A DNA stretch of 59,450 nt, counting the filler, from Asterionella formosa (Eukaryota), in the NCBI GenBank assembly GCA_002256025.1. It is 9 parts of 9 records of this genome, joined end to end, with 100 filler letters (N's around TTAATTAATTAA, not from the genome) between each part and the next. Parts side by side here need not be neighbours in the genome. Positions count along the whole stretch, not along the records: positions 26,535 to 33,053 come from NKIB01012685.1; 8 more parts are not named here. The stretch is one strand, 5' to 3'. The notes beneath the pieces were generated by a model, which saw only the letters and a list, made by a program, of their open reading frames with translations, did no database searches and was not told the DNA's origin. Position numbers and translations under genes: made by a program. Below, piece by piece: positions 2,231 to 52,964 of the stretch (position 1 is its first letter; the number at the start of each line of letters is the position of its first letter).

Positions 2231-4961
2231 TTACCACTTGCCGGTGCAAAGATCAAACACTCCTTCGATCAAATCACTCCCTCGCTTTACAACAGCCTTC
2301 TCCATACTTTCGGCATATGGGACAGGGGCGTCATCCATACAGAGACGTTTAACTGGAGAGTCAAGGAGGTCAAAGAGCTCCTCCGCCACCCTGGCACTGA
2401 TGGAAGCACCAACTCCACCAGTCTTTGTTGATTCATCCAAAATTGTGAGCTTGTGGGTTCGCCCAAGACTCTTCGCAATTGTGTCCATATCGAGGGGCTT
2501 CAAGGTGCGGAGCTCGATAAGGTCAACGTCGAACCCTTCTTCCTTGATAGCAGCAATAGAAGCCTGCGCTTCCTTCACTCCATGAAGATATGTCAGAACA
2601 GTCACAGCCTTGCCAGCCTTCACTGATTCAGCGCTAGCCTCGTGCAATAGGGCAGCCTTGTTCAAAGGCATGCATTGGCCAAGGTTGACCTTGCCCTTGG
2701 ATTCCTTCATCATCTTGACAGGAGCAAAGAGGAAGCATGGACCGTTGTCACGGATCATACTCTTGGTGATACCATATGCGGCATCAGGAGAGGCAGCAGT
2801 GCAGATCTTGAGCCCAGGAATGCCCATGACATAGGCATGGAAAGGCTGACTGTGCTCGGCACCAAGCGCTTGATTGGGAGCCGTCCCTCCAGCACCAATG
2901 ATAGTCAATGGCATGTTGAATCGTCCTCCTGTGGTAGCATACGTGTTTCCGGCAGAACTGAGCTCAGCCATGCCGTAAATACCAAAGTTGGTATTCATGA
3001 GCTCGACAATAGGACGGTACCCATTCATGGCTTCGCCCAATGCCTTCCCGATGAAATGACCTTCATCGATGATCTCATCGGCCGCACGAATCTGTCCATA
3101 CGTCTGTTGCGTCAACTTGGGAATATCGTAGGATGATCCTGCCTGTAGATCTTCTGCATGGATCGTCGTCATAGGGTCACGGAGCATCTCCTCATGAATG
3201 GCAAGGTTGATGGCATCTCCAATGGAGATCTCACCAGCGAGGGCTTTTCCTTGCAACATCTGTATGTGTGCCTTAACAGTGGCCATTTTTTCGGCGCTAA
3301 TGGTGCGTGCATTGACTTCGTCAGCAAAGGCAGGACTGGCCCGAGTGTTGTAGTCAGTGCCCGCCGCATCAGGATACTCGAGCTCCTTGGCGAGTTCAAC
3401 AGGTGGCATAGGCGACTTGTCAGCGAATTCAACCGACTTCTTGACATCAGCAAGGATTTCCTTCCGAGCATCCTTGAGTTCGTCCTCGGTGAAGAGTCCG
3501 CTGGCAAGGTATTTGGCTTCGAAGGACTTGATGGGATCTTGTTCGGCGCGAGCCCATGTCTTTTCTTCTTTGCGACCCCGCTCGTGCTCTGGGTCAGCAG
3601 GCGAGTGTCCATTGAATCGGTAGGTGTGGACCTGTAGGATAGCAGGTCCCTTCCCTGCTCGAATGTAGTCAATAACAGCTTTTCCTCCCTTGGCAACATC
3701 CGATGGGTTCATGCCGTCCACGAGGAGTCCTGGAACTCCATAGTGTTTACCGGCTTCATAAACATTCGAGTTTTGCGCAACATCCTGGGTGAACGTGTTG
3801 ATAGCACGTCCGTTATCAATAACAATGATAAGAAGGGGAAGGTTGTCCTTGGCTGCCGAGTTGAGTACTTCTGCCATTCTTCCGTTTTGTGATCCCCCTT
3901 CTCCAATAAAGACAACCGACAGGCGGTCATCGTCCGCTGGAGGAGCCACGTTTTGCTTGGTAATAGTGGCATCATCGGAGAGTCCCAAAGCGCGATCTAA
4001 AAGAATGCTCTTTGCCGCTCCACAAGCATATGGCAGCTGTTCCGAAACCAGGGCCCATCCTCCCTGAAAATATGTTTCTTTGTCAAAAATGTGCATGGAC
4101 CCACCAGCTCCACGGCAAGTGCCTCCATCCTTCATGAAAAGTTCTGCCATGATCGCCCCTGGGTCCACACCACTTGCCAATGCATGCGTATGCTCACGGT
4201 AGTATGAATACTTGATGTCACCATTCTTGATGGCGTAGTCCACCAGCCCTGGAACACTCTCTTGTCCATTGTCAAGGTGCATGAACCCACGAATCTTTCC
4301 TTGCATATATTGTTGGTTGCATGCATTTTCAAAAGCTCGTGCGAGCGTCATGGACTTGTACAACTTCATCAAGGCACCTTTGTCGCCCTCCAATTCGTCG
4401 TTGTATGCTTTGAGTTCCGCCTCCGAGTAGCCAAAGGATGCCTTGAGTTGGTTGCAGATTTCAGTCCAACTCATGTTGATGGGAGGGCGCATGGGCGATA
4501 CCATCTCTTGTTCCGTCTGCGCTTCAGGGGCAGTGGTGGACATGCGAGTCGAAGGAGTAATAGGGGATGCGGCAGACGAGCCGACATGGCTTCGAGTGGT
4601 GGCCTTTGGTGCGATGCTGATGTGTGTTTGTGAGAAGCGAGGAGAATTTGATGTTGAGTGTCAGTCAGCGTCGAGTCAAGCTGCAAAGGAGATAGTAGTT
4701 GCAGTGGTGGAGGGTGACGACATCGCGCTTGCAATAGAACATTTCTTGGAGTCGACCATTCGTGGAAACAAGAGGCGACGTAAAACGGATACTATCCATA
4801 TACAATCCCACGCAATGAAGGTGCCGTCACGGAACCGCTGCGGGTTCTTGTCGAGTTCACATGCGTTCGTCTCGCCTTGTCTTTGCACAACTAGTTACTC
4901 ACGTGAATGCCAAGGCAGAACCCACAGAGAGAGCGGCAACAGCAATTGTTGTGAACTTCAT
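2231..4961 (-). CDS. Plastid-targeted pyruvate dehydrogenase E1 alpha-beta fusion, about 814 aa; exon1 4961-4903, intron 4902-4617, exon2 4616-2231
   Basis: E1-alpha motifs (GFMHLDNGQE, YYREH, GGSMH, TYRFNGHSPADP) and E1-beta motifs (LGAEHSQ, DLIELRTLKPLD) lie in one ORF. The upstream exon MKFTTIAVAALSVGSALAF is a signal peptide with an ALA-F cleavage motif. It splices in frame (GTGAGT...CATCAG) to a Ser/Thr-rich transit peptide. Confidence 0.9.
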
Positions 4962-5830
4962 GATGTGCTTGCTAGTTCAAGATCAATCTGAACTGAGAAA
5001 ATATGACACCGAGTTTGGCTGTGTGGAAACGAGAATTTTAGAGTTTTAGCTATACCGGTAATAGATCCGACGAAAATAAAACACAGACGACGTCGCTCCT
5101 TTTGGCAAATACGAAATACGGGTAGTCGACGTGGTGTGACGACTGCGGCTGCATTCCGGTAATTGTGAGAAAAATCCTATATATGCGACATGCTACATAT
5201 TCGCACTTCATATACCGGTTGCTAATAGTATGTATGGAGCATTCGGTATACCGGTACATATTTGATTTAGTAAACTATACCTGGTAGGCAACCAGGTACC
5301 ACACGTAGAGTGCGACAAGCAAGGGAGCCTGTCGATCCCACAAATACCGGTATCCCTCTATGATTATCATATTGCCTGGAAGTATCCTCCGCCAAAAGCA
5401 ATACCGGTATATGTAATGAATGGCAGAAAGGGACGACAAGTGCGTCACTCATGCGTCGGACAGACGGAATGATCTGAGCAAACAAGCAAGCAAGCAGAAA
5501 AATTGTACCACGACATATTTTTACTTTCACCGGTATATAGGCAGACAACAGAACTAGGTACCGGTATTTAGTGGTATCTAAGTACCAGGTACTGTTCTGC
5601 GTATACTGGCACATACTACGCATGAATGTGCAGGATCAAAACGGGCTGCTACAGAAAGGTAAAGCGATACGTACTACCAGGTACGATAATCTGGGGTTTG
5701 GTAGATGACTACCGGTACTGGTAACACTACCGGTATCAAAGAAAGGAGCACTTTTTACAGTATCATGGTACGGTGTACCTTGTGTATCTACCGGTATGCA
5801 ATCAACTAACGGTAGACTACATGGTACCAG

Positions 5831-6538: not shown

Positions 6539-6638
6539 NNNNNNNNNNNNNNNNNNNNNNNNNNNNNNNNNNNNNNNNNNNNTTAATTAATTAANNNNNN
6601 NNNNNNNNNNNNNNNNNNNNNNNNNNNNNNNNNNNNNN
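6539..6638. other. Artificial contig linker
   Basis: N44-TTAATTAATTAA-N44 (stops in all six frames), identical at eight places in the window. Confidence 0.99.
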
Positions 6639-6918: not shown

Positions 6919-8018
6919 TGTCAAGAATAAAGCATCAATGACTGTGGACTCGACTATAGTCCAATGAGTCAAATGGTGCATTCCCATGTCAAGAAGCTTG
7001 CTAATGAGATTGATGTCTTAGATCAATCAGAAGAAGGTTTACATCAACGAAAAGGGAAAACGAAGAACAGGTTCTCGAATTGTAATGAATGGGATTGAAA
7101 CTTAGTTTTAGTTTAAGCTTATAATTTAGAAACAGTGAGAATTGACAGAGTAAGGTCAATAGCGAAAACTACTAGCACAAAGGCTAGCAGCAGAAAGACG
7201 ATGACAATACTAGTGGTATAACAGGTAAGTCCTACGTAAGAGAAACCCGTCAGACGGGAAGGAGTACGAGACATTTTAACACGCTTTAAAGCGTGGCTTT
7301 GAAGGCCACAGGCTACTCAGGAATGATGGGAACAAGTGACGAAGACAAGTCAGTGAGGTTGCCGACATTCGATGGGCAAGATGCTAAATGGCACATGTGG
7401 AAAGCAAAGTTTCTCGCATACGCGTGCTACAAGAACATTCAAGGAATACTTAATGGTGACAAACTACCAAGAGGAGAGAAAGACCTAAAGGACGATACGA
7501 TCGTGTTGTCAGATGCTGGTGAGAGATGCATCTGAAGGAGCAACACAGTTGCTTATGCAAGTTTGATAATGGCATGCCAGAGTGGGCCATTCGGACACGT
7601 AAATAATGCAAGACGTGCTGAGTTTCCTAACGGCATTGATAAAGAAGCATGGGACAAGCTCATTTCTACATATGAGTCAGGCGGCAACATGATGGCGAAT
7701 GTCATTGCCTTGTCCCACCAATGGACAAAGTGCACTCTAGGGGAAAACGAGAACCCTGACAGCTGGTATGTGGAGTTGGATCGTATCCGGGAAAGATTGG
7801 TCAATGCGAGCTCCGCAATTTCGGATGGTGCCTATGAGGCACACATGATCAACAACCTACCGGAAAGCTACAAGAGTTTGGTAGTAGGAAGGTTTGGCCT
7901 GGCGTGCAACACACTAACGGTCGAAGAGATTAAGACAGACATCTGGGACTACTACAATCTATATGTCCGGGATGACGTCAAAACGACTAACAATGAGAAG
8001 GAACGGCTTGTTAGCTAG
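6919..8018 (+). mobile_element. Ty1/Copia remnant: LTR (about 6919-7223, TGTCAAG...ATAACA) plus gag pseudogene (about 7323-8018)
   Basis: Copia gag-like sequence (LPTFDGQDAKWHMWKAKFLAYA...AWDKL...ENPDSWYVEL...HMINNLPESY) in one frame, interrupted by TGA at 7533-7535. The LTR 5' end is confirmed by an inverted copy at 52965-53060. Confidence 0.75.
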
Positions 8019-13174: not shown

Positions 13175-13274
13175 NNNNNNNNNNNNNNNNNNNNNNNNNN
13201 NNNNNNNNNNNNNNNNNNTTAATTAATTAANNNNNNNNNNNNNNNNNNNNNNNNNNNNNNNNNNNNNNNNNNNN
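13175..13274. other. Artificial contig linker
   Basis: N44-TTAATTAATTAA-N44. Confidence 0.99.
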
Positions 13275-19804: not shown

Positions 19805-19904
19805 NNNNNNNNNNNNNNNNNNNNNNNNNNNNNNNNNNNNNNNNNNNNTTAATTAATTAANNNNNNNNNNNNNNNNNNNNNNNNNNNNNNNNNNNNNNNN
19901 NNNN
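19805..19904. other. Artificial contig linker
   Basis: N44-TTAATTAATTAA-N44. Confidence 0.99.
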
Positions 19905-21004: not shown

Positions 21005-24000
21005 ATGAGTTTCACATTTGTGACAACTCAAACCAACATTGGCATGTCTATGATGAGGCCATCACGGATGGAACCTGCTACTTTTGAATTGGACAGTTAT
21101 CCAATAATCATTGACAATTGCTCAACAGCATGTGTTACAAACAATGTAAATGACTTCATTGGAGATACCAAAGATATTCAGGCAAGGGTAACTGGAATTG
21201 GAGGACAAATATGCATCACAAAGATTGGTACAGTCAAATGGAACATTGAAGATGATCAAGGAAGGATTCATCAAGTCAAAATTAAGGATACTTTCTATGC
21301 ATATGATGCACCAATTTGATTGTTGTCACCACAACATTGGGCAAAATCCGCAAATGATAATTCTGAACATATCAAGGGAACATGGCAAGTGACCTATGAT
21401 GACCAAATTGAATTACATTGGAGCAACAACAAGTTTCAAAAGACAATAATCCTTGATTCAATCACAAATGAGGGGAGATTTCAATCAGCACCGGGTTTCC
21501 AGCGATTTATGGTACATAACATGTTGATTCAACCAGAGACCAGTCATGTGTGTTGTTTCGATGCAAATTTGGTGTCTGATGACGAACAATCAATAACATT
21601 GGATACCACAGTTAAAGATTGTGAAACAACCATTGCAAATGAGATTCCAACACAGCTCATACCGACACTTGACAAAAATCTATCAAAAAGAACTGGCCCC
21701 CATGTAATCAACTTTCATGATGAAGATCAGCTGGATTATAAAGAAACTAACAGTGTTTTGGAACATCAACTTGCTCCAATGGCACTATTACTCCGATTGT
21801 ATTATCAAATGTCTCATTTGTCCTTCAGGTCACTAAGATTAATGGCGGAAAATGGTCATCTCTCAAGAAAGATAATGGAATGTCCAATACCAAAGTGTAC
21901 TGCTTGCATGTTTGGAAGAGCAACCAGAAGACCATGGAGAACTAAGTCAACTATAAATGCAAAAATCAAGATAACAACGCAACCAGGACAATGTGTTTCA
22001 GTTGATCAATTGGAGTCCCCCACACCTGGTTTGGCTACCCAACTCAGAGGCATACCGACAACATTGAGATACAAGGCAGCAACAATATTTGTTGATCATT
22101 TCAGTTGTATGAGTAATGTTCATTTACAACCAACATTGTCATCACAGGATACCATTAAGGCAAAGAAAGCTTTTGAAAAGTTTGCTCGAAGTCATGGAGT
22201 GATTATAAAGCACTATCATGCTGATAATGGTCGATTTGCGGATAATGCATTCATTGCTGATACTCATGAACAGCAACAGACAATCACATATTGTGGTGTG
22301 AATGCACATTTCCAAAATGGAATTGCTGAAAAGCGGATTCGAGACCTCACCAGAACATCACTCCTACATGCCTCAAATAGATGGCCCAAGGCAATATCAA
22401 CATGACAATGACCTTATGCATTGAGAACCGCAAATGATTTTATTAATTCGTCACCCAAACGAAGTGATTGAAAATCTGCATTAGAAGTCTTCTCAAATAC
22501 AAATGTTGTCTCAAAGCTTGATTTTTTTCACCCCTTTGGCTGTCCAGTTTACAACATTTTGGACAACAAGCTCCAAGCTGACCAGAAGATAGACAAGTGG
22601 TATAAGAGAACTCGAGTCGGAATTTACCTTGGGCTATCGCCAAACCATTCAAGATATGTGTCACTAGTGCTAAATATCTTAACGGGTATGGTCTCACCAC
22701 AATTTCACTATAAGGCGGATGACATGTTTGAGACAGTAAATGTCCCTGAAGACAGCAACTACATTCGATGGCAGATTGTTACCAGGTTTGTTGGAGGTAA
22801 GTTCAGTGCAGAAACAAAACTTCATGTTTCAAGAGTAAAGATGGGTAGAATAACGGTATTGGGAACCACAGCTCCCAAACCAATTGACAATGAGTAAGCA
22901 GCGCCCATTCAACAAACAGATATTGAATCAGATACATCTCCAGTGCATCATGATAATTCCTCTGAGAAACCAACATTCCCAGAAATATCTGAAGGAGTTG
23001 TTCATGGACCCCTCGAAGGCACCGGTCGGTGGTCTGAGAGGCACAAACCCTCAAAGAAGCTTCGAGAAAGCATTGAACAAGGTTTCCTGTCCCTTCCAAC
23101 GATTTTCCATGATGAATATGTAGATGAGGAGTACAGATAACAAGAGAGCATGCGTGATCCCATTGCATTTGCAGCAAGTAATGACAAGGACACAATGTAT
23201 GTTGATCAGGCAATGAGGGCACCAGATCGCAAACAATGCCTCAAAGCCATGGTGGATGAGGTTGAAGCCCACACTAGCTAACAATGGTCTCTGGAAAATA
23301 ATTCTGAAAACAGAAGTGCCTCTTGGGATCAAAATGCTCCCATCAGTGTGGGCCATGAAGCGCAAGAGAAGAATTCTCACTCAAGAAGTGTATAACTCAA
23401 ATGGAAAGCAAGGCTCAACATTCATGAAGGAGAACTAAGTGATTACTTGGGAATCAAGATCACCAAACTCCAGGACGGAAGAATTACTTTGACTCAGCCA
23501 CAATTGATCAATTCAATCATAACTGATTTGAATTTTGCACCCAATACAAAGCCAAAAGATATACGTGCTAACTCTTCCGTATTTCTACAAAGAGATGTGG
23601 AAGGTGATGAGTTTGACAAACCATGGACCACCTACAGGTCAGTAATTGGAAAGCTAAACTTCCTAGAGAAATCAACAACACCCGACACATCTTATGCAGT
23701 GCATCAGTGTGCAAGATTTGCATCCCATCCAACAAAGAAGAGCCATGGAGATGCGGTCAGAAATTTTGTCCGATACCTCTATGGTACAAGGGATAAAGGA
23801 ATTATCATGAACCCTCATGGACATGATTTTACAGTGGCTGTTGACAGCGTTTTTTCAGGAAATTGGAATAAAGATACAGCAATGAATGATGTCATGACAG
23901 TCAAGTCAATGTCAGGTTACATCATAATGTATTCAGGATGCCCCATTTTGTGGTCATCCAAGCTCCAGACAGAAATAGCGTTATCAACCACTGAAACAGA

Positions 24001-26434: not shown

Positions 26435-26534
26435 NNNNNNNNNNNNNNNNNNNNNNNNNNNNNNNNNNNNNNNNNNNNTTAATTAATTAANNNNNNNNNN
26501 NNNNNNNNNNNNNNNNNNNNNNNNNNNNNNNNNN
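26435..26534. other. Artificial contig linker
   Basis: N44-TTAATTAATTAA-N44. Confidence 0.99.
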
Positions 26535-27949: not shown

Positions 27950-28250
27950 TGGTGAAAGAAGTTTGAACACAATAAGAAAAAGCTGCGCTAGTTCAAATGC
28001 CTTCTGAGCTGGACATTTTCCTGGTGCCACAACACCAAAGTATAGGAAGCAACAGTTACTGTCGCAAACAGCTTGAACATTCAATGCATATGACAATTAA
28101 TGACCAGACCAATTTAATGCCTGAGGGCATCTGTCACGATCCTTTTTCTTGGTTTTGGCAATAGGCTGTAAATACTCATCTATACACCAACGCATAAACG
28201 AAACAGTTGCTGCTCAAAGGCAAGAAAGGCATCCAATCTCAATCGTTTTC
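27950..28250 (-). mobile_element. PIF/Harbinger transposase remnant
   Basis: YALNVQAVCDSNCCFLYFGVVAPGK matches the Harbinger DDE motif LNVQAVCD...F...PG; an upstream CIDE-like motif is separated by stops. Confidence 0.65.
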
Positions 28251-28629
28251 GGACAGACTATGACAAGCTCTTGAAAAAGGATTGTTTCGGTGAAAATCCG
28301 ATTTACTGGACATTATGTTCAGGACGCGCTTCCAGATGAGCCGGTCATTGTTTGATAAGATTCTTGATGATTTGGTTGCTTCGGATTCTTAATTTTGTCA
28401 GAAGAAGCATGCCTTGTTGGTTTTGCTGGGATTTTTGCCACACCCAAAACTTACCTTGGAACATATGAAATATGCAAAATATATTTTAATGATGGGCAAT
28501 ATCGGACCTTTGGCAACTTTCGAGGTGAAGATAGGAAATATACAAATTATATTTTATATGATGGGCAATAGAAGGCTAAAATTGACATTTATGCTAAATT
28601 TGTGGGCAGTAGGTAAGCGAATGACGCGA

Positions 28630-28876
28630 CGATAGCTAGAGCGGGAATTGCCTCAACAATACCCTTCTCGGCGGCTGCTTGCATTCTCGTATACATGTGT
28701 ACTCAGATGGGATGGCACTCGTAGGGTGACCTTCTCGCAGCGCTGGGGGCGCCACTCGTACAGTCAACCTACTCGCGCCACCCAGCCTCGAACACATGTA
28801 TACTCGCAAACAAGAGACCACCTCGGGCGTGTGTTGCCTTCAGCAAAACATACCTACTCAAGACTCTAAGTCTACG
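28630..28876 (-). ncRNA. Rod-like fold-back element with periodic tandem G.A internal loops; family unknown
   Basis: Five mirror pairs of CTCR tetramers centred on 28746, with complementary stems of about 11-15 nt between them. Most inner mismatches are A.C on + and therefore G.U on -. Confidence 0.7.
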
Positions 28877-28877
28877 A

Positions 28878-29215
28878 GACCCTTTTTGCACATTCAAATT
28901 CCGATTCCAGTATTTTGGCGTTTTAGAGGAGGATTGCTCTACATCTGCGGGGTTTCATGAAGATTAAAATAGATAGCCGTGTACCCTACATATAACGTGA
29001 GGAGCAAACTTCTGGGGAGAAACTGCAGTTATGTATCATAGATATTTTCAAAGCTTCGTAGCCCCTTCCTTTGACTATTTTTGTGAAAGTTACGAATCTA
29101 CGATAAATGACTGTAGTTTCTTTCCAGAAATGAGTTCCCTAACATATCCGAAGATAGAACATATCCCTAAGTCGACCAATAACTGTACCGGTATCTAAGC
29201 ATATGCAAAAAGGTC
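28878..29215. mobile_element. Fold-back MITE-like element
   Basis: Terminal inverted repeats GACCCTTTTTGCA / TGCAAAAAGGTC and an internal inverted pair TTCTGGGGAGAAACTGCAGTTATGTATCATAGAT / ATCTACGATAAATGACTGTAGTTTCTTTCCAGAA; non-coding. Confidence 0.6.
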
Positions 29216-31299
29216 ATATCGGTGAAAGCTAATTTTACCTTTTACTATTTTATTTTGTTGTACGTAATGTGTGGATTAAGGTACATCAAGAAATTATTTT
29301 GGGAAAAAAGAACCTCGTAATGTGTAACTCCGGGGCCGCAACCTTAAAGCCGCAGTGATGTTAAGGTTCCTGCATTTAATTTCCCTAGCTCGAGGTAGGA
29401 GGGCTCTTAAAAACAATATTAAGTCAGATTAGCCAATCATACACTTCTTACAAGTAAAACATAAATGTATATCGCTAAACAAAGCTTTCACCAATATACA
29501 CCCTTTAAGTATGCTTAGAAACAGTCATTGATCAAAGTAGGTACAGGTCAATGCTATCTATTTTCGGAATAAGGTTCTGGCGAGAAAATGCAGAAAGGAA
29601 CTTCGGTTTTTTGACTATGCTGAAAATAGTGGATTTTACGGGGCCAAATTTTTTATTTAGTCTAGTAATAAAAACCGAAGTTTCTTTCTGCACTTTCTCG
29701 CCGAAAGTTAACTTTTGGGATATACGAAGAATACCTTTGTACTTAACTCTTCTTCAAACCCTGTCAACGTTGAGCTGTCATCGTCCAAAAATTTGACAAT
29801 TTCAGTCTTTTCAACGGTCTCAAGAAAGTCAGAATCAGAATCACTAATCGCCGAAACATCATCAGAAAAAGTGTCTTGTGGTTCAATTTTTCGTCCTACC
29901 ATCGCCTGTTCAAAAAATTCCATTGTAAGTGCCCGCTTCACTATAAATATATTGATTGGCCAAGTTGAATAACTTCCTGATATATGTTTTGCACTGCCGT
30001 AGTATGGGGTTGATAATTCATCATCTATGTCTTGACGATGATGAACTGATCGGACTCAATATCTCCACGAAAATTGACAATCAACCATTCCTATTTTGCA
30101 CATAAATCAAGCTTAACATAGACGAGGTAATCGTTCAATAATCGAAGTTTTTGATTTAATTTTGACCGCGAAAATTTGAAAATTGCTGCTAGAATTTGTT
30201 TTCGTCGTCGTTTGCTCTATTTTGAAGCTACAACCATAGTAGAGACAACGTTTAGTCCTTGATGACTACTAGCTTAATAACTTTTACTAGATGATTATTT
30301 CTATCTACTGTAAAGATTAATGAGAAACATAGAGAAAATCAAAATTGGAAAGGGCGCAATAGCTCAAAATGCAAGAAAACCTCAACCACTTTTCTGTACT
30401 GACTTTTCATGTATGTACCAGGTTATACCCCTTCATGTCGAGTAGCCTATTCCAATGGAATCTTGATAAGGTCATTTCAAAGTTACGTCTAAACATACAT
30501 ATAGACATAGAACAATATGCTGCTTGTTCTTGAAGCGACAAAATATTTGTATGCTAGTATAATTCAGACACTTTTGTTCCAAAATTGTATTATTTCGAAG
30601 TGAATGCTGTTGAGGTGTAATTCTTCCCATCCGGGATGAGCCGAACATAGATCTCGAACACTCTGCTCCAAAACTTGTTTGCTTTTGCCCAGTCCCAGTG
30701 ATTGCATCTTCACTTGCTGCTACCAGTTATAAATAGCTTTTAGCCACATTATTATATCGTTTTCCGACTAATTCTAGAATTATGCTAAAATCGATCCCCT
30801 CTTTCGCCCTTTGGCACTATATTAGTTAGTTCATTAAGCTACATGAGAATAATATCAATTTGTTTACTTGAACATATATTAACTGAGATCTATCCTTTTT
30901 TAAAGTGACAAAACCGGTCGAAGTGGCTCAAAGCCATTGATTAAAATGTTACCATACATGGTTATTTTTATAGGTAACGGTTAGAAAATATTATATCGTT
31001 TGCAAGTTTTTCTGCTGTAGTTGCATTGTTTTTTGACTGGTAGTGTTCCCATTTTATCTTGTCAGTTCCATCAAAGACTCCTCCCATTTTTTGGCAGTAG
31101 TCTTTGCATCGCTCGTTTTTAGATCTTGTCATGTAATAGGATCGACCAAAGGGTGAGAAGGTGGCGTCATTGCAGTTGCAACTGGTACTGCAGTGTCGCC
31201 ACGAATCATGGTGTCATGGTATCAGGTAAGTAGAAGTTGCTTCGACATGAAGACTGGCTGTGTATTTGTTATTGCTTGTTGTTTGTTGTTTGCAATTGC

Positions 31300-33053: not shown

Positions 33054-33153
33054 NNNNNNNNNNNNNNNNNNNNNNNNNNNNNNNNNNNNNNNNNNNNTTA
33101 ATTAATTAANNNNNNNNNNNNNNNNNNNNNNNNNNNNNNNNNNNNNNNNNNNN
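33054..33153. other. Artificial contig linker
   Basis: N44-TTAATTAATTAA-N44. Confidence 0.99.
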
Positions 33154-39670: not shown

Positions 39671-39770
39671 NNNNNNNNNNNNNNNNNNNNNNNNNNNNNN
39701 NNNNNNNNNNNNNNTTAATTAATTAANNNNNNNNNNNNNNNNNNNNNNNNNNNNNNNNNNNNNNNNNNNN
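39671..39770. other. Artificial contig linker
   Basis: N44-TTAATTAATTAA-N44. Confidence 0.99.
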
Positions 39771-41487: not shown

Positions 41488-44179
41488 TTAGGTTCTTGAT
41501 CTATTTGGTTCCATGGCCACATCCGATTCCACCGACGATGGATTTCGAGCATCAGACATTGTCCCATTGGAAAATGTATTCATCAACCGTGAAGCAACTA
41601 CATTTGGTTTGGTGACAATATCAACTCTGACGCTGCAGACCGACGAAACTGCTACTTTGATTCCTTCCTTGACTGCCTTGACATCGTTCATCGTAGCTGT
41701 GGGTAATGAGTTTAAATCGTTGCTGTTGCTTGCGTTCATCACAATTCTTGAAGATGCCTCTTTCACTCTCTTCTTGTTTCGAGTTCGATACTTTTGAAGA
41801 AAAAGAGGGAAGGATAATGCAATTGCACATACAGCAACGAAAAGAGCTCTGATCAGGAAGAAGGCAGATGGCCATTGTTTCACTAATAAAAGTGCAGGCA
41901 ACGAAACAACAATGGCTTCCAACAATAGCGCCATGGAAATCGCAACATATTTGCTGTCATTGAACTCGGTTGGATGGTTCCTGCCTTGATAGGTCTCGTA
42001 ATTGGCAACAATAACAGCACAGAAAAAATTCAAGTACCAGAAGGCCTGAAATGTATACTCCAGTGTTTTGCTTTGGCTTGCACATGTAGCAATACTCTCT
42101 GTTAACCTTCCGAATTCATCTACACTATTTCCAGTATAGATACGAGTGGATACCAATGGATCAATGGTTGACCAAGTGATAAGCACAACTAAGTTCAATG
42201 TCATGAGAATGAAAAACGGCACGAGAACGTCTTTAGGCTTGACTATGACACGTCGGCACTGCTTCGCACTTTTCATCAATCGATTCAGTCTGCGAGCTTT
42301 ACAGTAGATTGCGCTGAAACTGGAATTCGAATTGTTAGAGTTAAATTGACTCTTGCATTCGGATAAAGCCAACCACAACATACCTAGTGACGAATCCAAT
42401 GGAAAACAACCATTCGTACGCCATGCATGCGAAATCCAGACCACTCTGTGAAACAGGATATTGCATGGCAGTTGGTATAATTGAGGCACCCATGATAAAG
42501 GTACCAACAACATTCATATGAAGGAAAAAGGGCTGTGCTGCTCTCACTGAAGGTCGGTCCTTGTACCTGCAGGTAAAAAATATCCACCATACAGATGAAA
42601 GGATAACAAATGCCGCCAATAACAATCCAATTGTAAGGATCCCTGTACTTATCAAGTTCATGTTTTCTTTGAGAGGAGGCAGTCCCTCAGGTTGAACAGT
42701 AGATCCATCTGCATAGACAAAGGGAGAAATAACTTCTATTCGTGAATCGTTGAGAAAATAAGCATCATGGCGACGTGTTCGAATTTTCCCAAAACGTGTT
42801 ACCGAGATCGACAATTTGCTGCTGAATCGAAAATCCCCAGACTTCGATGTTTCTGGATCTGCCACTATGTTGAAAATTCCATACTCCACACCGTCAGTTC
42901 GGGTGCCAGTAAGAGGATCAAATTGCACTTTCCCAGAAACTCCAAGAAATTCGGTACGCAGCCACTCATTGTACAACTGCGGTCCAGAAAAAAAGGGGCC
43001 ATATTCGGTACTGACATTGCAAGCAGCTAAGCCCAGAGAAATAACTGCATCGAAGTACAGTTGCTGTTCACTTAATGCCACAGTTGTATGCGCCGAAAGG
43101 TTATAGGAATTGAGAATTTCGGTGTTGTCGTGCCTTAGTATGTAGTCACCTTGTAGTTCTTGGTCACCTGCAAAGTCGTTGATGGCTTGTGTAAAAGCAG
43201 GGTGCTGAGGAACATTAAGGTTGATGATTCCAATCCCGTCGATGGCCTCATAGAGGACTTTATCCGCAACCGAGAAAGTAGGAGATGTAAAGCTGAAAGA
43301 AGTCTCTGATAAAATCCAGGCATATTCGGATGTCCCAATAATGCCCAACGTTTGTGCTTCTTTCAAGACAACGGTAATGGCATTGCGCGACAGAGCCCCA
43401 AAGAAGTACCTGAAATTTGTATCGGCTAACTTCTTCACCGCAATTTTGATGGAGTCTTCGTTATTCGGATCATACGAGAAAGCTGCTACTTTCAGCGGCG
43501 AATTCTTGACGTTGATAAACCCTTGTATATCTCCCACGAACTCCACGCCGTACGGGTCCTGAACGTAAATTATTCCAACATAATTGACTTTTATAGAAAT
43601 CAAGTAACTGACAAGAACGTATGCATCTCCTAGATTCGATGGAATCGTTCTTCCGAAATATGGGTATATATCCTTGTTGTCTAGCTCCGCAGAGGTGGAT
43701 CCTGGCGAGATTTGTGGAATCCCTAATGCCCCTGACAAAATGGCCATCTGCCCCGTGACAGCCGATCTCAACGACCCAATAACTGCCATTGGAAAAGGAG
43801 TCAGAACAGAAGGGTTCACTCTGATAGCCCGATCCATTGCCAGTGCCGACACTATGGGTGACTGCGTGGAGTCATACATCCTTGTGTCCAGTTGGAGATT
43901 GCACGTTCCAATGAGCTGTGGAAGCTCCGGGAGAATTTTTCCGGAACGTTGATTGAATTCTCTCATCGCAATGTAGCCTGCGATTTCGGAGGAAATTTGA
44001 AACGGCGCCGGAACTAGCTGTGTTGAAGATCCATCGAGCTGAAGGACAGATATTGGGTAAATAGACGCGATGCGTCCTTTTCTCATGTCGTGAGAGACCT
44101 GAATGATGGGAGAAAAACCAAAAACGATTGAATCACTGCTGGTCCCCAATGTCGGAGTATCATCGAGGGTTGCATTCAT
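41488..44179 (-). CDS. Class C (GABA-B/metabotropic-like) GPCR; exons about 44179-42384 and 42319-41488
   Basis: Venus-flytrap motifs VIGSLRSAVT, PQISPGSTSAELDNKDIYPYFGRTIPS and FLGVSGKVQFD; 7TM motifs VRAAQPFFL, WSTIDPL and PTEFNDSKYVA. A 64-nt GT-AG intron restores the frame. The start is uncertain. Confidence 0.9.
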
Positions 44180-44669
44180 GGCGATGAAGGAGCAAATCAA
44201 AGACAATGGGAAAGCGATATAAACCGATAGACTGCTCAATTATTGTCAATTCAATCTTGCTGCAAACGATTCGTGTGTTTTGTGTTTGGTCCATGGCGGT
44301 TGCTCCATGGTATACCTGGTACTGGTACCAGGTAGCAGGACGCAAGAAAGGAAGTCGCTTGGGGTACAATGCAGCGGTGCTACAAACTGACCATATGCAC
44401 ACCGGTAAACTTATAAGAACCACTGCTTCATACACTTTCAGCCATAATAGTAGTAGTCTAGGTAATACGGTATTCTACCGGTCATCTAGCGTGAGGGTGA
44501 AGTACCGTAGACACGGTAGTGAATAAGAATACTTTAAATACCGGTATATGTAGGCTTGGGTTCCATCGTAGGAATATCAAAATCAAGGCAAATACCCGGT
44601 AACCAATAATGCCACTCGTCCGTTTCTTCCAACGTTTTGTCACTCCTCTGCTCCTTCATCAACTTCATC

Positions 44670-46276: not shown

Positions 46277-46376
46277 NNNNNNNNNNNNNNNNNNNNNNNN
46301 NNNNNNNNNNNNNNNNNNNNTTAATTAATTAANNNNNNNNNNNNNNNNNNNNNNNNNNNNNNNNNNNNNNNNNNNN
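46277..46376. other. Artificial contig linker
   Basis: N44-TTAATTAATTAA-N44. Confidence 0.99.
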
Positions 46377-52864: not shown

Positions 52865-52964
52865 NNNNNNNNNNNNNNNNNNNNNNNNNNNNNNNNNNNN
52901 NNNNNNNNTTAATTAATTAANNNNNNNNNNNNNNNNNNNNNNNNNNNNNNNNNNNNNNNNNNNN
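52865..52964. other. Artificial contig linker
   Basis: N44-TTAATTAATTAA-N44. Confidence 0.99.

Follow-up and report, generated by a model that had tools for sequence, protein, structure and literature searches.

The window, that is, the whole stretch of DNA analyzed here (59,450 nt from Asterionella formosa), holds genes for ankyrin, fused E1 dehydrogenase, cytochrome P450, class-3 GPCR, and syntaxin proteins. Few or no introns are seen in the gene for the fused E1 dehydrogenase alpha/beta (2234–4660, minus strand; nearest cluster mostly Bacillariophyta), in the P450 gene (39773–41245, plus strand), and in the GPCR gene, which encodes a periplasmic-binding-type ligand domain and is read in two frames (41491–44239, minus strand). 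Copia-type gag and integrase remnants, with matches at 7536–8015 (plus strand) and 22472–22894 (plus strand), are far from the element described below (gag, E 3.6e-8; retroviral polymerase SH3-like domain, E 1.2e-4, below the Pfam cut-off). Also, pairs of 44-base N runs recur every ~6.6 kb (6539–6638, 13175–13274, 19805–19904, 26435–26534, 33054–33153, 39671–39770, 46277–46376, and 52865–52964), apparently as non-biological marks of masking or scaffolding, which limit the search for displaced pieces of the element.

The element itself ends in a long hairpin (the rod), and its copy in the window is composed of the following features:

28446–28456, plus strand: left copy of a candidate target-site duplication (AAAACTTACCT), matching 28845–28855 at 10 of 11 positions and abutting the junction
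28457–28846, plus strand: decayed, left-truncated repeat copy, the last ~390 nt of the element, delimited by BLAST homology of 28459–28846 to metagenome loci and by a peak of contig depth at 28459–28866
28459–28594, plus strand: two tandem 68-nt units in the element body (repeat families D1 and D9, spacing 68–69 nt, 87–89% identity)
28620–28645, plus strand: stretch left of the palindrome, mirrored beyond the hairpin in metagenome locus L001, where 32 nt ending in AATTGC match the right flank in mirror image
28646–28848, minus strand: terminal imperfect palindrome (hairpin rod); the element ends at ~28846, and 28847–28848 is flank in the window copy
28667–28737, plus strand: left arm, five CTCR tetramers starting at 28667, 28686, 28702 (CTCA), 28718, and 28734
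28738–28754, plus strand: rod tip, a GC stem and a loop (28744–28748, 5 nt in the window)
28755–28825, plus strand: right arm, five CTCG tetramers starting at 28755, 28772, 28787, 28803, and 28822, each opposite its mirror partner as a 2 × 2 loop
28845–28855, plus strand: second, right-hand copy of this candidate duplication (AAAACATACCT), whose first two A overlap the last two bases of the element

The ten CTCR tetramers of the rod are nine CTCG and the single CTCA at 28702, all lying on the plus strand. Across the 58.7 kb of the window that are read bases, CTCG was counted 117 times, which gives 0.32 expected per 160 nt and a Poisson probability of 7e-11 for at least nine in such a length. 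The midpoints of the five tetramer pairs fall at 28746, 28746, 28746, 28746.5, and 28746, and the segments between tetramers pair across this axis. In the minus-strand fold, stems of 9–13 pairs alternate with loops, each tetramer pair forming a symmetric 2 × 2 loop (CGAG/CGAG, and once CGAG/UGAG) at a spacing of ~16 nt, equivalent to 1.5 helical turns. When both strands of the whole window were scanned for CGAG/CGAG loops with paired flanks, the two matches found (2/2) were in this rod.

A preliminary description of this DNA, made from the sequence, had already listed the tetramers, placed them in mirror positions about 28746, noted the complementarity of the arms between them, and read the pairs on the minus strand as CGAG/CGAG with one UGAG. 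All ten starts are exact, the five midpoints agree to within half a base, and in the fold the arms pair as described and the tetramers face each other as 2 × 2 loops. Its arguments that the stretch is non-coding and that tetramers of the same orientation on both arms derive neither from a plain inverted duplication nor from a tandem repeat are also supported. The description gave about seven wobble pairs; the 203-nt window hairpin has 12 G.U pairs on the minus strand, with 8 between the outermost tetramers. As for the loops, a pyrimidine-GA-purine context is stable in DNA too. CG-closed tandem GA is reported to form sheared pairs (PMC5900564), which upholds, for CG closure, the view of CGAG/CGAG as the context of sheared tandem G.A. 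The rod loops fit this context, with a geometry predicted from the published motif; the CG-closed GA/AG loops are 5/5 in L001, 4/5 in the window, and 4/5 in a further metagenome locus, L015.

The proposal of a folded single strand was compared with shuffled sequences. For 28630–28876, the minus strand folds at −110 kcal/mol (z = −5.97) and beats 200/200 shuffles (0/200 as good), whereas the plus strand is weaker, at −81.9 kcal/mol (z = −2.76) with 2/200 shuffles as good. The 203-nt equivalents in L001 and L015 each fold into one continuous rod. Taken as RNA, the L001 rod gives −114.4 kcal/mol for the minus strand (z −11.2) and −86.7 kcal/mol for the plus strand (z −7.4); taken as DNA, the values are −52.8 kcal/mol (z −7.4) and −45.4 kcal/mol (z −5.9), respectively. 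The rod of the window (−96.7 kcal/mol) folds worse than those of L001 (−114.4 kcal/mol) and L015 (−112.5 kcal/mol), which indicates that the window copy is worn. Moreover, the loop at the rod tip is of 3 nt in L001 and L015 against 5 nt in the window, where the majority of contigs have C at position 28744. Regarding the strand, nine G.U pairs of the L001 minus strand stand where the plus strand has A.C, and only two oppositions are reversed. The mutations among copies include six minus-strand C>T versus two G>A, a difference that was read by eye from the alignment and is not significant.

Public runs were searched with 28200–29300, and four of them were compared over 28000–29500 at 80% likeness; the contig counts take in X8, X15, X17, and X18, with the small-share runs X9–X14, X16, X19, and X20 left out, and no argument is drawn from stretches that lack RNA cover. 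Matching contigs were 611 in X15 (RNA), 80 in X8 (DNA), 21 in X17 (RNA), and 5 in X18 (RNA), those of X15 being distributed as 44, 136, 234, and 197 among the likeness classes of 99% and above, 95–99%, 90–95%, and under 90%. The summed depth in X15 is 2400–5700 at 28459–28866 versus 8–80 at 28000–28458. In X18, the depth is 16.7–30.9 inside the element and 0 at 28000–28458, and to the right of the element it is 0.18 at 28867–28917, 0 at 28918–29376, and 2.4–3.0 from 29377 on. In X8, the DNA run, no increase in depth is seen toward the constant end of the element, the values passing from 122 to 22–29, and contig depth cannot rank the parts of the element. The sequence is present in RNA libraries of three studies (X15, X17, and X18), with the proviso that contigs are strandless and that RNA libraries can contain DNA.

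A scan of metagenome contigs with one 20-letter motif gave 17 loci. Seven are true homologues, with 92–96% identity (L001, L002, L004, L005, L009, L015, and L017); the other 10 correspond to chance matches, L007 being rich in the motif and yet reading as coding DNA. BLAST over 28459–28846 gives 95.9% identity for L001 and 92.8% for L015, and partial matches for L005, L009, L017, L004, and L002. No second copy of the element was found in the window, where self-BLAST returns only the internal 68-nt repeat (28459–28501 versus 28527–28570, 88.6%), and a 19-mer of the left arm has 0 matches in the genome contigs and 0 in the viral contigs. The stretch 28459–28846 thus represents a single copy, decayed and truncated, of a non-coding repeat that is dispersed in high copy number and, for annotation, the region is repeat DNA and no new RNA gene.

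This bears on the candidates named in the preliminary description. A stand-alone new ncRNA is not borne out, the hairpin being the terminal module of the dispersed repeat, and the viroid-like insert fares no better, the joints of the "goes back" type being only two among those listed and of low depth. By contrast, a signal of a mobile element fits a hairpin that terminates a high-copy dispersed repeat. The array of protein-binding sites and the evasion of Dicer that were also put forward there stay putative. The description did not recognize the family, and Rfam 15 gives 0 matches at the gathering score over the whole window; over 28300–29200, the best E-values are 0.3–6, with bit scores far below gathering and miRNA-family scores that amount to noise. 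For the seven homologous loci, 1 weak and irrelevant Rfam match and 0 tRNA genes were obtained.

To the left of 28459, homology continues for at least 685 nt in other copies (L009 and L017). This body of at least 685 nt has no frame above 84 aa, and its 10 short frames gave 0 Pfam matches. The left ends vary, the window copy stopping at ~28457–28459 and L001, L005, L009, L015, and L017 running on; in the runs, loose ends are found before 28618, 28645, 28742, and 28839, which could be rearrangements. The right end, ...CAGCAA(T), is identical in six copies, with T following the end in 5/6, and after it come five mutually unrelated flanks (window, L005, L015, L002, and L004 compared). Among the 29 contig pieces listed, 7 end at 28843–28846, and two X18 contigs continue from there with different letters. 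A poly(A) or short-repeat tail is absent, ...CAGCAA(T) directly abutting the flank in the six copies; some LINE clades also lack tails. In L001 and L015, which are near-consensus, the last 203 nt form a continuous imperfect palindrome from AATTGC to GCAATT, and since this palindrome reaches the end of both copies, the hairpin is flush with the end of the element.

Two observations concern the flanks. A diverged X17 contig (before 28866) and an X18 contig (28839–28870) have the right flank of the window beside letters like the last bases of the element, one of them ~77% alike. A subfamily may carry part of this right "flank" with it when the element is copied, or the whole junction may have been duplicated. 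Also, GGTACC-rich short repeats are near several copies, in the right flanks of L015, L002, and L004 and in the body of L009 (reverse complement, 236–266), which could reflect a target preference or a common host satellite.

The same rod is found next to a second body. In P0002–P0004, which are spurious ORF products of the rod from other contigs (five such proteins, all rearranged forms), the rod is preceded by the sequence that L001 has on its right side, read in forward sense. Judging by these sequences, the tail is common to two or more different bodies. In short-read contigs, the rod has one orientation relative to the first body (body A) in six loci and the opposite one in L017; relative to the second body, also in short-read contigs, L001 has it one way and P0002–P0004 the other way.

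The copy in the window is bracketed by the candidate duplication. Of 20,000 place pairs drawn at random from the window and allowed equal freedom of offset, 3 reached the level of the 10/11 match at both junctions, one copy being examined, and no empty target site is among the joints listed. A truncated copy inside a duplication, together with the constant right end and the seemingly variable left breakpoints, corresponds to the pattern of target-primed reverse transcription, with a template that would run from left to right and terminate in the hairpin. Two loci differ at the base of the rod. In L001, 32 nt ending in AATTGC are the reverse complement of the right flank at 27/32 positions, with a different sequence beyond, and in L017 the right arm passes directly into the reverse complement of the body. 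Both junctions are as expected if the plus-strand 3′ end pairs with AATTGC at the rod base and is then extended, and they show that this end, if it is indeed the 3′ end, can be extended once it has folded onto the hairpin base.

The comparison of copies also informs on the origin of the motif. CTCG is intact at 10/10 positions in L001, 9/10 in L015, and 9/10 in the window, and both losses are CG>CA. The contig majority differs from the window at 28517, 28547, 28572, 28677, 28683, 28705, 28707, 28744, 28762, 28809, and 28810, and the majority stems are better than those of the window. At 28705 the majority letter is G, corresponding to CTCG in the family, and therefore the CTCA at 28702 is a decayed CTCG. 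This comparison shows that the five CTCG/CTCG oppositions were part of the founding sequence of the family and have only been lost, by CpG decay, in single copies. Moreover, a reverse-complement duplication would give CGAG opposite CTCG, so that a change of GA to TC at five mirror sites only argues for a design of the founder instead of neutral decay.

Covariation was counted for 77 pairs in eight near-identical copies (92–96% alike), where 63 pairs are invariant, 6 vary on one side, 0 vary on both sides, and 8 have unpaired cells only. Larger changes are found in three loci. L004 and L005, whose right flanks differ, are missing the same 101 nt of the distal rod, corresponding to 28706–28806 of the window and bounded by CGAGTA direct repeats, so that only two loop pairs out of five remain; either a single short form was propagated or the deletion arose twice. 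In L009, TGCGAG stands for TTCTCG (28684–28689 of the window), one CTCG having been replaced by CGAG through a patch copied from arm to arm, which would make normal pairs of that loop if the partner arm, which is off the contig, is intact. In the runs, many low-depth joints of the "skips" and "opposite strands" types lie over the rod.

The rod is very probably the terminal hairpin of a mobile element, of which the window carries a dead copy. That this element is a non-LTR-type retroposon, with the hairpin as its 3′ recognition or priming tail, is our preferred reading, to which we would give about an even chance. According to it, the plus strand would be the copied template, its 3′ end being the last base of the hairpin, and a reverse transcriptase supplied in trans would recognize the tail and start target-primed reverse transcription there. 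That protein, or a coat made of several copies of it, would then make contact at each of the five identical and evenly spaced loops. In the RNA template, the C-UC-G/C-UC-G pyrimidine loops would keep the hairpin meltable, whereas in the first-strand DNA the loops would be stable sheared tandem G.A pairs. A tail common to two bodies is like the sharing of tails between LINEs and SINEs. No matches to a reverse transcriptase, endonuclease, Rep, or transposase were found in 71 of the 115 window frames of at least 85 aa (the 44 left out mostly overlap longer frames), and none to a reverse transcriptase or endonuclease in the 10 short frames of the body. A centric diatom is reported to carry non-LTR retrotransposons of RTE-like type (PMC2806351), and recognition of a stem-loop in the 3′ tail by LINE proteins is described in two other works (PMC4176376, PMC1636434).

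Several results count against the retroposon reading: the missing poly(A) or short-repeat tail, the lack of enzyme matches in the frames scanned, the X8 depth that fails to increase toward the constant end, the single copy examined for a duplication, and the X17 and X18 contigs that carry the right flank of the window. The greatest difficulty is the strand, the clear preference for a minus-strand fold conflicting with the polarity of a plus-strand template. The preliminary description had pointed to the minus strand as the folded one, and in this it stands only in part: the better fold and the excess of G.U pairs agree with it, whereas the constant right end, the left truncation with its target-site duplication, and the fold-back junctions indicate a plus-strand 3′ end for the mobile strand. 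Either the functional structure is that of the first-strand DNA, or it is that of an antisense RNA, or the G.U excess comes from a strand-biased mutation.

Stem-loops of stringent LINE/SINE pairs are short and are usually followed by short repeats or poly(A). The tails of these pairs (eel UnaL2, the zebrafish L2-type, and the R2 3′ UTR) are like the rod, as interpreted here, in being structures at the extreme 3′ end that are recognized by a protein of the element and are common to different bodies; also, their copies, like that of the window, are truncated at the other end and surrounded by target-site duplications. The rod differs in its length of ~200 nt, its flush end, the lack of a tail repeat, the five identical 2 × 2 loops, and a reverse transcriptase partner that was not found in the frames scanned. 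In UnaL2 an internal loop of the stem is reported to matter (PMC1636434).

In a more speculative form of the retroposon reading, which we hold to be improbable, the 200-nt terminus would act on a single-stranded minus form (first-strand cDNA or ssDNA), its five sheared tandem G.A pairs being a periodic scaffold for an enzyme, and the hairpin would self-prime, giving flip/flop forms and inverted junctions. If true, a retroelement of a protist would include a step of self-priming or of rolling-hairpin type, with a kind of terminus so far undescribed.

Many retroposons are recognized by their enzymes through terminal stem-loops, of which the known ones are short and irregular. Five identical, regular 2 × 2 loops would be a model for proteins that read a long helix, and the conflict between the strands could be used to ask whether the structure of first-strand DNA matters in retroposition. 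The abundance of the family in RNA and DNA data from several waters makes it a practical marker and likely an active element of a poorly studied group.

As an alternative to the retroposon reading, it is possible, although unlikely, that the repeat is a DNA element that passes through single-stranded DNA (rolling-hairpin, hairpin-telomere, or Helitron-like), whose palindrome self-primes and in which a Rep/HUH-type protein, or another that binds DNA, recognizes the sheared G.A pairs and the direct repeats of CTCG. The palindrome does reach the exact end of the element, short-read contigs have the rod in both orientations with body A and with the second body, the junctions of L017 and L001 resemble dimer junctions or extension primed by a hairpin, the base after the end is T in 5/6 copies, and both strands fold well as DNA (−52.8 and −45.4 kcal/mol). 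Nevertheless, an 11-bp duplication around a truncated copy is unexpected for Helitrons or hairpin-ended replicons, the end is GCAA(T) and not CTRR, no Rep or helicase gene was found in the window frames scanned, the other end of the element is not reached in any copy, and the opposite orientation is a minority (1/7 loci for body A). Specifically, no Rep/NS1-type nickase gene is present in the 71 window frames scanned.

The closest likeness for such an element is with the ends of viral genomes. The terminal palindromes of parvoviruses, including AAV, and of poxviruses exist in flip and flop forms, and in the AAV stem repeated tetramers are protein sites. Like them, the rod is an imperfect palindrome at an extreme end with mismatches that distinguish its orientations, it seems to occur in both orientations, judging by short-read contigs, and at some junctions it lies between inverted bodies. 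It differs from them in belonging to a repeat dispersed in the genome of a protist, with flanks that are unrelated and a target-site duplication, in the lack of a Rep gene in the frames scanned, and in the dominance of one orientation.

A structured RNA of the minus strand is a doubtful alternative. The element would then yield a hairpin RNA, a small-RNA precursor, or a 5′ packaging or dimerization signal in a retroelement RNA starting at 28846, with the sheared G.A pairs as protein sites. The fold of this strand is the best by a wide margin (z of −11.2 for L001 and −5.97 for the window copy), its G.U pairs exceed the reversed oppositions by nine to two, the sequence is present in RNA libraries, and sheared pairs are reported for CG-closed tandem GA (PMC5900564). 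Against it, the ever-present end would be the 5′ end of the RNA, which is the opposite of truncated retrocopies; the fold-back junctions require that the plus strand have a free 3′ end; transcription beginning at 28846 would need to be initiated from unrelated flanks in every copy; and a strand-biased mutation could yield the G.U excess, although the bias counted (six C>T versus two G>A) is not significant.

That the rod is a decaying foldback or MITE-like palindrome without function, with the tetramer repeat as a by-product, is very unlikely: its instability among copies (the 101-nt deletions of L004 and L005, the L009 patch, and the many joints) and the lack of covariation (0/77 pairs, in near-identical copies) would agree with this, but the GA-to-TC change at only five mirror sites is not neutral, the tetramer density has a Poisson probability of 7e-11, the body is on one side only in 6/7 loci, and the duplication brackets the body together with the rod.

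Among the established classes, a MITE or foldback element was rejected because a non-palindromic body of at least 685 nt is on one side in 6/7 loci and because the duplication brackets 28457–28846 and not 28646–28846. Helitrons have a 3′ CTRR, a short hairpin 10–12 nt before it, insertion between A and T, and no duplication; here, the end is GCAA(T), a hairpin of ~200 nt is flush with it, and a duplication is present. The LTR of an LTR retrotransposon, with TG...CA ends and a duplication of 4–6 bp, was discarded because the end ...GCAAT matches the ATTGC start of the palindrome and the duplication has 11 bp. An array of kink-turns was also rejected. Kink-turns (sites of L7Ae, 15.5K, and SBP2) share with the rod a core of tandem G.A, but on one of their strands the G.A pairs are immediately preceded, on the 5′ side, by a bulge of 3 nt, whereas all five loops of the rod are symmetric 2 × 2 loops, closed by C-G/G-C and without the 3-nt bulge.

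The nearest published counterpart of a single loop is the sheared tandem G.A loop of (5′-CGAG-3′)2, which has the same context, a GA/AG 2 × 2 loop closed by C-G on both sides, for which sheared pairs are reported (PMC5900564). The known cases of sheared tandem G.A, in rRNA and model duplexes, are single motifs, whereas the rod has five at ~16 nt in one helix. In the literature, no description of a helix with five identical and evenly spaced tandem mismatches was found, the publications found on tandem G.A dealing with single loops, and none was found that combines tandem G.A, transposon, and hairpin.

Finally, the neighbors of the element in the window (28204–28416 and 28867–29500) are repeats too, of lower depth in X15 and X8, the copy being placed in a nest of repeats, and an X8 contig of 196 nt is identical to 29031–29226. 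Downstream, two hairpins are located at 29001–29138 and 29579–29702, one with 43-nt arms that are 77% complementary and the other with 33-nt arms that are 94% complementary, the latter beginning with GGCGAG, whose CGAG pairs normally with CTCG; both hairpins may be small inverted-repeat elements.
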